From Escherichia phage 899: DNA of 33,804 bases. Location: sequence record PV533660.1; one strand, given 5' to 3'. The translations under genes were made by a program, and so were the position numbers. The notes beneath the pieces were generated by a model. The model did not search any database. It worked only from the letters and a program-made list of their open reading frames with translations, and was not told where the DNA came from. Numbering within the stretch: the stretch's first letter is position 1; the number at the start of each line of letters is the position of its first letter. Positions 23,540 to 25,183 of this stretch are shown here, piece after piece.

Positions 23540-25183
23540 ATGGATATCAATTTAATAGATGTAACTAGTTGGCGTAAAGATGATGAGCATGGCATTTTTC
23601 CTCGAGGAGCGAGGGATAAAAAAATGCTTTGGTCACCGAATGATGCTCCTGAGGGGATAAAACCGGAATGGCCTTATCTTTTTAAACTCTCAAGAGATGC
23701 TTATCCCGATCAGTACTGGATGGAAACCGTTGCTTATATAGTTGGAGATGTTATGGGCGTTCCTGTTCCTAAAGCATTGCCAGCGCGAAGAATGATGGAG
23801 AACGGTGAATACGAATATGGAGCTTTGCTTGAGTGGTTTTACGATCAAAGTAGCCAGTTATTTGTTCATGCGTCTGATTTTTTTCATGTGTTGATATCGG
23901 ATTTTGATGACTCTTCCGGAAGACACCATAACCTTGTTGATCTACGCTTAATTTGTAGGGCTTTTAGTATCCGCGGCCTGATCTCTCCAGACTGGATCCA
24001 ATGGCTTTACGATATGCTGCTTTTTGATGCGCTCATCGGTAATAGTGATAGACACCAAGAGAATTGGGGTTTTGTTTTTGTACCTGAATCTGCACCAGGC
24101 ATAACGCCACCTAAAGTGAAGGGATATCTCGCACCATATTTCGATAATGGTACTAGTTTGGGGCATGAAAGGTATGTAGAGAGGATCAGAGGATGGAACC
24201 ATCAAAATGTAGATGAATACATACAGCGTGGTTGTCATCATTTGCGGAAGAATCGGGCAGACACGCATGAACGATTAGGTCATATTTCTTCTATACAGGA
24301 TTTGGCTCTTGATGAGCAGTCAAAAGCGTACTTGGCCCGGAGACTTGAATTTGATTTTCAGGAACTGGTCGACAAGATAGATTCACTTTGCGAAATTAGC
24401 TCCGATGTGCCGTTCACTAGGGAACGAGCGGATTGGACGATTCGTTTATTGAGGCGTAGATACCTAAGGTTATCACTGATTCTAAATATGCGTACTATAA
24501 ACAGAATAATGGAGCCTACTCGGTTGCTTCTTACATGGCAGCCACCCACAGGCGGTACTCGTTATGTTGTTGGTCAGATTGATCGTCAGCAAGGGGATAA
24601 CTACGTCTTCACATACCATTTTCAGTCAGAAGATTATGCTAAAGCCCAAGAGAAAGGGTTTGCAGGACATCCCGCATTTAGTCTGAAAAGTGAAGAACAT
24701 ACGAACAACGTGCTTGACCCGTTTGTTCGGCGTTTACCACCACGGAAAAGAAAAGACTTTGCTGAGTATCTGGCTCAACATTTGCTCCCCCATCCATTTG
24801 AAGGCTCTGATTTTGCGCTGTTAGGATATACAGGAGCAAAATCACCTGGCGATGGTTTTTGTTTGGTGCCAGATCCAGAAATTCTTAATAGTGAAGGTGA
24901 GCTTCTTTTTGAAGTGGCAGGAACTCGTTATCAGGAAGGGCTTGATTTGTCGAAAGTAATGGTCGGTGATTTGGTCAAGCTTGTTCCTGAAGAGGATAAC
25001 CCGGTTGATCCACATGCTATAGCTGTTGTTCATGAGAGCGGGAAACTTGGTTATATAAACAAAGTGTTATGTAAAAAACTCAAGCAAAAAATAGCAAAAC
25101 ACAAAATATCTGCTTTTGTTGCAAAGAAGAATGGGACGCCAGAACGTCCATTAGTGTACCTTTTAGTTGAATGTAGATCTTAA
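23540..25183 (+). CDS. HipA-like Ser/Thr kinase fused to a C-terminal HIRAN-like domain
   Basis: 547-aa ORF starting 9 nt after the exonuclease stop; catalytic-loop-like LFDALIGNSDRHQENWGF (about 24020-24070) and FDNGTSLG (24140-24163) resemble HipA C-terminal kinase motifs; C-terminal VAGTRYQEG...LVPEEDNPVDPHAIAVVHESGKLGYINK resembles the HIRAN consensus. Confidence 0.75.
   Translation: MDINLIDVTSWRKDDEHGIFPRGARDKKMLWSPNDAPEGIKPEWPYLFKLSRDAYPDQYWMETVAYIVGDVMGVPVPKALPARRMMENGEYEYGALLEWFYDQSSQLFVHASDFFHVLISDFDDSSGRHHNLVDLRLICRAFSIRGLISPDWIQWLYDMLLFDALIGNSDRHQENWGFVFVPESAPGITPPKVKGYLAPYFDNGTSLGHERYVERIRGWNHQNVDEYIQRGCHHLRKNRADTHERLGHISSIQDLALDEQSKAYLARRLEFDFQELVDKIDSLCEISSDVPFTRERADWTIRLLRRRYLRLSLILNMRTINRIMEPTRLLLTWQPPTGGTRYVVGQIDRQQGDNYVFTYHFQSEDYAKAQEKGFAGHPAFSLKSEEHTNNVLDPFVRRLPPRKRKDFAEYLAQHLLPHPFEGSDFALLGYTGAKSPGDGFCLVPDPEILNSEGELLFEVAGTRYQEGLDLSKVMVGDLVKLVPEEDNPVDPHAIAVVHESGKLGYINKVLCKKLKQKIAKHKISAFVAKKNGTPERPLVYLLVECRS

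Follow-up and report, generated by a model that had tools for sequence, protein, structure and literature searches.

HipL was defined as a protein consisting of a kinase core together with HipS-like and HIRAN domains, while the hipIN module encodes the HipI kinase and HipN, in which a HipS-like domain is joined to HIRAN (Gerdes, Baerentsen and Brodersen, 2021, mBio; PMC8262856). Here we describe a HipL protein and the 3'-5' exonuclease encoded upstream of it in Escherichia phage 899 (sequence record PV533660.1). The window is the whole stretch of 33,804 nucleotides that was analysed, and all coordinates are positions in it. The motifs of bacterial HIRAN domains were compared with those of HLTF by Gerdes et al., who proposed for HipL and HipN that HIRAN might recognise the DNA ends or replication intermediates of an invading phage and turn the kinase on, leading to abortive infection (PMC8262856). 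A sequence-only reading of the window had suggested that free DNA 3' ends could trigger the kinase; this is the published hypothesis almost word for word, and it is not new.

The cassette itself is also known. Rousset et al. (2022, Cell Host Microbe; PMC9122126) recorded "DUF5051 / HIRAN" as variant 41 of the P2 hotspot with 102 occurrences and a split variant, "DUF5051 / HipA_C / HIRAN", with 25 occurrences, naming the kinase HipA or HIRAN and not discussing a mechanism. One of their tested systems, pFR108 ("Exonuclease + HipA"), was assayed with its native promoter in E. coli MG1655 against lambda, T4, P1, 186cIts, CLB_P2, LF82_P8, AL505_P2, and T7 (PMC9122126). The architecture, the DNA-end hypothesis, and the two-gene cassette have therefore all been published already, and our literature search found no later paper in which HipL or HIRAN-kinases were tested.

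The best explanation of the locus is a two-gene cargo operon, an exonuclease gene followed by a gene for a HipL-type protein, in the variable hotspot between gpA and the portal gene of a P2-like phage. Judging from the matches described below, we have hardly any doubt about the identity and architecture of the HipL protein. The two genes and the domains of HipL are as follows.

22979..23530 (+): 3'-5' exonuclease of 183 aa, predicted DEDDh, Rv2179c-like / T4 DexA-like, formerly DUF5051
23540..25183 (+): hipL, HipA-family kinase of 547 aa with HipS-like and HIRAN domains, starting 9 nt past the exonuclease stop
23540..24493 (+): kinase core of HipL, aa 1 to ~318, without the N-subdomain 1 of HipA
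24512..24874 (+): HipS-like (Couple_hipA) domain, aa ~325-445
24887..25174 (+): HIRAN domain, aa 450-545, from Pfam, the family profile, and conservation

The sequence-only reading had described a HipA-like kinase with a C-terminal HIRAN domain and a co-encoded 3'-5' exonuclease, and matches to Pfam and PADLOC showed this architecture to be correct. In PADLOC, the N-terminal half of HipL matched M03A (E 4e-31) and the C-terminal half matched M03B (E 1e-30) of the candidate system PDC-M03. The protein belongs to PHROG 26212, a family of unknown function, and the search of NCBIfam gave matches below threshold only.

Nucleotides 24887-25183 (+) encode the peptide that had been called HIRAN-like (NSEGELLFEVAGTRYQEG...LVYLLVECRS and stop), that is, the final 98 residues of the 547-aa open reading frame (ORF). 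The profile search bore this assignment out, with PF08797 matching the segment alone at 45.2 bits (E 8e-12) and the full-length protein at 41.2 bits over aa 453-525, both above the Pfam gathering cut-off of 24.7. Among the PDB sequences, a family profile built from 34 domains found 3k2y, a HIRAN-like structure of bacterial origin (E 2.6e-7), as well as five human HLTF HIRAN sequences, including 2mzn, 4xzf, 5bnh, and 4s0n (E 5.5e-5 to 7.9e-5). The family profile was needed to reach HLTF, because phmmer with the lone HIRAN segment against PDB sequences gave no significant match to it (E ~1.3). An AlphaFold2 model of HipL, with a 120-sequence alignment as input, was confident over the whole protein, with a predicted local distance difference test (pLDDT) score of 93.9 and a predicted template modelling (pTM) score of 0.91; it superseded a run on the single sequence, which gave a pLDDT of 37 and was not usable. 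In comparison with known HIRAN folds, the C-terminal domain is predicted to have the fold of HLTF and Rad5.

In an alignment of 76 HIRAN domains of the family, G461, N487, A493, and G504 are invariant, followed by D490 (74/76), Y505 (73/76), R463 and Y464 (Y or H; 70/76 each), and K508 (K or R; 69/76). The equivalents of G461, R463, Y464, N487, D490, A493, G504, Y505, and K508 in the profile alignment are, in this order, G69, R71, Y72, N91, D94, A97, G109, H110, and K113 of HLTF, in what we take to be the HLTF numbering. Most of the residues with which HLTF holds the 3' end thus appear to be kept in the family (R463, Y464, N487, D490, G504, and K508). The position equivalent to Y93 is variable (V, H, I, F, or Y), and F142, the duplex-stacking residue, is missing from most bacterial HIRAN domains (PMC8262856).

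The kinase half was likewise confirmed, with a Pfam HipA_C score of 25.8 bits on HipL, under the cut-off of 30.5, and with invariant catalytic residues. In an alignment of 67 kinase sequences, G23, R25, and K27 of the loop, K49, E62, D170-R-H172-Q-x-N175, and D202-N-G are invariant in all 67, among them D170/H172/N175 of the catalytic loop and D202, which binds the metal. Because the catalytic and metal-binding residues are invariant, the kinase is probably an active enzyme. In Rousset et al. (2022) the kinase is given in an older RefSeq version, WP_001774097, which begins at M29 and omits nucleotides 23540-23623. The residues D7, W11, D14, G23, R25, and K27, which precede M29 and span the glycine-rich loop, are invariant in the full-length homologues, and for this reason the start at 23540, which gives the 547-aa protein, is judged to be right.

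Between the kinase and HIRAN lies a HipS-like domain that the sequence-only reading had not mentioned; Pfam Couple_hipA matches aa 343-437 at 26.7 bits against a cut-off of 22.5. A profile of this region had no matches among the PDB sequences, and the whole basis of its putative likeness to HipS is the Pfam match together with the predicted fold. The HipS-like domain is most likely the element that couples HIRAN to the kinase.

The upstream gene product matches Pfam PF16473 (Rv2179c-like) with an E of 7e-57 and belongs to PHROG 255, "exonuclease". Its nearest solved sequence is 8kel, a 227-aa "Exodeoxyribonuclease" (E 1.7e-5), which we take to be T4 DexA. Since D7, E9, D109, H161, and D166 are found in 7/7 orthologues, the enzyme is assigned by its sequence to the DEDDh type.

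The exonuclease gene is tightly associated with the kinase gene. Among 5426 complete E. coli genomes, both genes were present in the identical 61 genomes, and the exonuclease was never found alone; we considered that it might be a generic backbone gene of P2 phages, and this was ruled out by its confinement to the 61 genomes that also carry HipL. The exonuclease lies directly 5' of the kinase in 16 loci, representing ~12 distinct cassettes, and directly upstream of it in every close relative examined. The pair persists to ~50% identity and occurs in at least five unrelated genomic contexts, namely the P2 hotspot, a non-hotspot chromosomal site in Proteus, a prophage end, a phage early region, and a Mob_Pre element. 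Fused HipL with the exonuclease was found in P2 hotspots of Serratia, where the exonuclease overlaps hipL by 17 nt, of Atlantibacter, and of metagenomic phages, as well as outside the hotspot in Proteus, beside ahpCF. Split three-gene operons with overlaps of 4-8 nt were found in Shewanella, at an Aeromonas veronii prophage end, in a phage early region with Dam and SSB, and in a Mob_Pre element. The two genes are separated by a 9-nt gap here and overlap by 4-17 nt in relatives. The exonuclease thus shows strict linkage to a single clade of kinase-HIRAN modules, both fused and split, which is an addition to the published work.

Homologues of the exonuclease at 43-50% identity were surveyed in 80 viral loci, in 76 of which HipL was absent. 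Among the IMG/VR prophage contigs (loci L092-L167), many such HipL-free homologues lie near prophage ends or in lambdoid-type prophage arms, and many are directly 3' of a dATP/dGTP pyrophosphohydrolase gene, with a YfbR-like 5'-deoxynucleotidase, a PrtN-like gene, and an integrase nearby. Their neighbourhood is nucleotide-salvage-like. In a Rheinheimera metagenome-assembled genome (MAG), a DUF3037 gene (L008:5571-6005) overlaps the start of a split hipI by 4 nt at the place where close relatives have the exonuclease, and it may be an alternative third component.

A search of 1.84 billion representative proteins (E <= 1e-3) gave a family of 1471 matches, and full-length fused proteins accounted for two of the best 150 of these 1471. 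Full-length relatives of HipL were found in Enterobacterales and their relatives, down to ~40% identity. The nearest free-standing kinases (~310 aa) are 49-56% identical to the N-terminal half, and free-standing HipN-like proteins (~233 aa) are 45-61% identical to the C-terminal half. The kinase and HipS-HIRAN, which are a single protein here, are encoded by two overlapping genes in most relatives. In a neighbour-joining tree, made without support values, the fused forms are not monophyletic and occupy at least two separate positions among the split ones. This interleaving suggests that fusion or fission occurred more than once, a further addition to the published work, which in turn suggests that the kinase and HipS-HIRAN act as one unit.

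The neighbourhoods of kinase-HIRAN modules were surveyed in 80 genome loci. The split hipI-hipN module directly follows hsdM-hsdS of a type I restriction-modification operon in 14 of them, and other neighbours include a type ISP enzyme, an SNF2 helicase with an Eco57I-type methylase, and a CI-like repressor. The more distant split relatives are thus located in restriction-modification islands, which is also an addition to the published work. Split modules near restriction-modification genes were seen, among others, at loci L018, L020, L022, L026, L036, L038, and L044. A fused, exonuclease-free HipL of Aeromonas salmonicida (L085:4292-7918) lies between a CI-like repressor (HTH and Peptidase_S24) and an integrase of a P2/186-like prophage, a cargo site other than the gpA-portal hotspot.

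Phage 899 is P2-like, and the cassette occupies the classical tin/old variable hotspot between gpA and portal. The borders of the hotspot and the putative signals of the cassette are as follows.

20524..22800 (+): P2 gpA replication endonuclease, flanking gene and left border of the hotspot
22882..22909 (+): candidate sigma-70-like promoter, TTGGAA-16-TAGAAT, from a consensus scan (9/12 matches)
25200..25233 (+): intrinsic-terminator-like hairpin, AAACCGCCTC-TTTGAA-GGCGGTTT, followed by a T run, 17 nt past the hipL stop
25537..26571 (-): P2-type portal protein, flanking gene and right border of the hotspot

Both a promoter-like site and a terminator belong to the cassette itself. The promoter candidate sits in a 178-bp gap 3' of gpA and inside the pFR108 insert, which was cloned by Rousset et al. 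"with native promoter". The GC content of the cassette is 41-46%, compared with 51-60% in the flanks, and the hotspot houses tin, old, and other validated systems. The region of ~300 bp from the hipL terminator to the portal stop codon (25234-25536) has no ORF of at least 60 aa, and a second hairpin with a T run at 25516-25531 (minus strand) is probably the terminator of the portal-terminase transcript.

The 2.4-kb cassette used as a query is identical to that of Yersinia phage GMG73 (OP880301.3, an unannotated record), which was the sole record encoding the HipL protein among 50,697 phage records. In the 61 E. coli genomes this 2.4-kb stretch shows at least 99% identity and is chromosomal in every case. 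PGAP/RefSeq labels the exonuclease (WP_001774096.1) "3'-5' exonuclease" and the product of the kinase gene (WP_023253881.1) "HIRAN domain-containing protein". In many complete E. coli chromosomes with the prophage (e.g., NZ_CP054214.1), base 1 is the start codon of gpA (20524 of the window), and the exonuclease is at 2456-3007 in 20/40 E. coli rows among the matches listed; such assemblies seem to have been rotated onto the prophage replication gene rather than dnaA.

These features lead us to a working model. In an uninfected cell, the HipS-like domain would keep the kinase off, by analogy with free HipS acting on HipT in HipBST. HIRAN would bind DNA ends with a free 3'-OH, or short pieces of DNA, that arise in the course of phage replication, packaging, or breakdown of host DNA, and this binding may lift the inhibition of the kinase. 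The kinase would then phosphorylate an essential host protein, which by analogy with HipA and HipT could be an aminoacyl-tRNA synthetase, so that translation would halt and the infection would be aborted. The exonuclease may act on the same 3' ends, most plausibly clearing away background ligand to keep the kinase silent. Our opinion of the cargo operon with this model as the overall explanation is evenly balanced, and we lean slightly toward a role in mobile-element conflict or phage defence; DNA 3' ends as the trigger of the kinase are a tentative proposal on the doubtful side. A HipA-family kinase carrying its own DNA-end sensor would be a clear and testable case of how such kinases may be switched on in phage defence.

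Instead of sensing, HIRAN could serve for localisation or autoregulation, either holding the kinase at replication forks or at DNA ends, where it would phosphorylate a DNA-bound target, or replacing HipB as the DNA-binding repressor of the operon. In eukaryotes, HIRAN domains bring enzymes to stalled forks (cited in PMC8262856), HipL and HipIN modules have no HipB-like helix-turn-helix partner, and the high pTM of the model suggests a fixed arrangement of the domains. HIRAN domains, however, recognise 3' ends without sequence specificity, which would suit operator binding poorly, and we regard this role as rather unlikely. Another view is that the cassette merely holds two independent cargo genes, with the exonuclease as a stand-alone effector on modified phage DNA, like EcD ("HREX"), and HipL as a toxin-antitoxin-like or addiction module in its own right. 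On its own, a bacterial DexA homologue was reported to be protective against T4 (PMC12153337), and 8kel, the nearest solved relative of the exonuclease by sequence, is an "Exodeoxyribonuclease"; each gene also occurs apart from the other, the exonuclease homologues in the 76 viral loci without HipL and HipL in Aeromonas without the exonuclease. The strict linkage in 61/61 E. coli genomes argues against independence, and so does the survival of the pair, with reading frames overlapping or nearly abutting, through fusion or fission of the kinase and changes of context. EcD, moreover, is a different protein, and pFR108 includes the exonuclease, yet it is not listed as protecting against T4 (PMC9122126). 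We consider independent genes improbable. As to the identity of the exonuclease with the anti-T4 protein EcD, this candidate was rejected, since the EcD primers encode other termini, MIDTET... and ...TIPETYD with its stop.

The cassette might also serve the P2-like phage itself rather than defence, through lysogen maintenance or addiction, control of rolling-circle replication, or competition with P4-type satellites. It lies directly downstream of gpA, and rolling-circle replication begins at the gpA nick with a free 3'-OH. In addition, HipA-family kinases are classical toxins of toxin-antitoxin systems and persistence (PMC8262856), and no protection was reported in the sole test (PMC9122126). 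The same module, however, is found outside P2 phages, in restriction-modification islands and other mobile elements, and the hotspot is known for harbouring defence genes. A purely phage-serving function thus seems quite unlikely to us.

Several points weigh against the cargo operon with a DNA-end-sensing kinase. Because the residues corresponding to Y93 and F142 of HLTF are not conserved, DNA binding by this HIRAN domain could differ from that by HLTF. The loop serine that is autophosphorylated in HipA (S150) and HipT (S57/S59) appears to be absent from the loop F20-P-R-G-A-R-D-K. The Aeromonas HipL (41% identity) lacks the exonuclease, as do 75 of the 80 genome loci, which indicates that the exonuclease is not essential to the family. 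pFR108 is placed in Table S2B, "additional tested systems", and not in Table S2A, "validated defense systems" (PMC9122126). This negative result is weak evidence against a broad defence phenotype; Rousset et al. noted that a small phage panel underestimates defence (PMC9122126). Finally, no experimental DNA binding, kinase activity, toxicity, or target has been reported for any HipL or HipIN.

The protein described here resembles the HipL of Gerdes et al. (PMC8262856) in having the same order of three domains, a core kinase without N-subdomain 1, and intact catalytic motifs. HipL was described as monocistronic, whereas hipL is here the second gene of an operon with the exonuclease, as in its closest relatives. 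In hipIN and PDC-M03 two genes encode what is one polypeptide here, and the present HipL can be regarded as the two-gene hipI-hipN module in single-chain form. Compared with variant 41 of Rousset et al. (PMC9122126), the exonuclease is identical, and HipL is identical over the portion in their table, which was annotated from M29. The primer or insert ends of pFR108 correspond to 22675-22694 and 25516-25556 with no mismatch (PMC9122126), and we conclude from these sequences that the pFR108 insert (22675-25556) and the cassette are the same system. In HipBST and HipBA the antitoxin (HipS or HipB) is a protein of its own and there is an HTH regulator; here the HipS-like part is joined to the kinase in cis, with HIRAN as an extension. 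No HTH gene or HipB was found in the cassette, which sets it apart from the HipBST/HipBA kind of type II toxin-antitoxin system. In HLTF and Rad5, HIRAN is combined with an SNF2 translocase or a RING domain; in the present protein it is joined to a kinase.

A comparable arrangement is known in Actinobacteria, where a gene for a DEDD-superfamily 3'-5' DNA exonuclease (diDNase) adjoins HipA and HIRAN genes (PMC11706625). The diDNase is an NrnC homologue specific for deoxydinucleotides (PMC11706625), while the exonuclease here is Rv2179c/DexA-like. That the two enzymes belong to the same family was considered and ruled out, because the diDNases are NrnC homologues. Since two unrelated DEDD exonucleases are found beside HipA-HIRAN, the association seems to have arisen independently, i.e., by convergence. 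This recruitment of DexA/Rv2179c-like enzymes in mobile elements of gamma-proteobacteria and of NrnC-like enzymes in Actinobacteria, together with the nucleotide-salvage genes adjoining stand-alone relatives of the exonuclease, leads us to a more specific proposal. The HIRAN-kinase might sense short 3'-OH DNA fragments, down to dinucleotides, that result from DNA degradation during infection, rather than long replication intermediates, and the exonuclease might be a signal-clearing enzyme that sets the activation threshold. Although we regard this as a long shot, it makes a clear prediction, namely that loss of the exonuclease would render HipL auto-active or toxic. The residual interest of the locus lies in the consistency with which exonuclease, kinase, and HipS-HIRAN form a three-part unit and in this possible clearing of a short-DNA signal, in which the exonuclease would resemble the ring nucleases of cyclic-oligoadenylate signalling.

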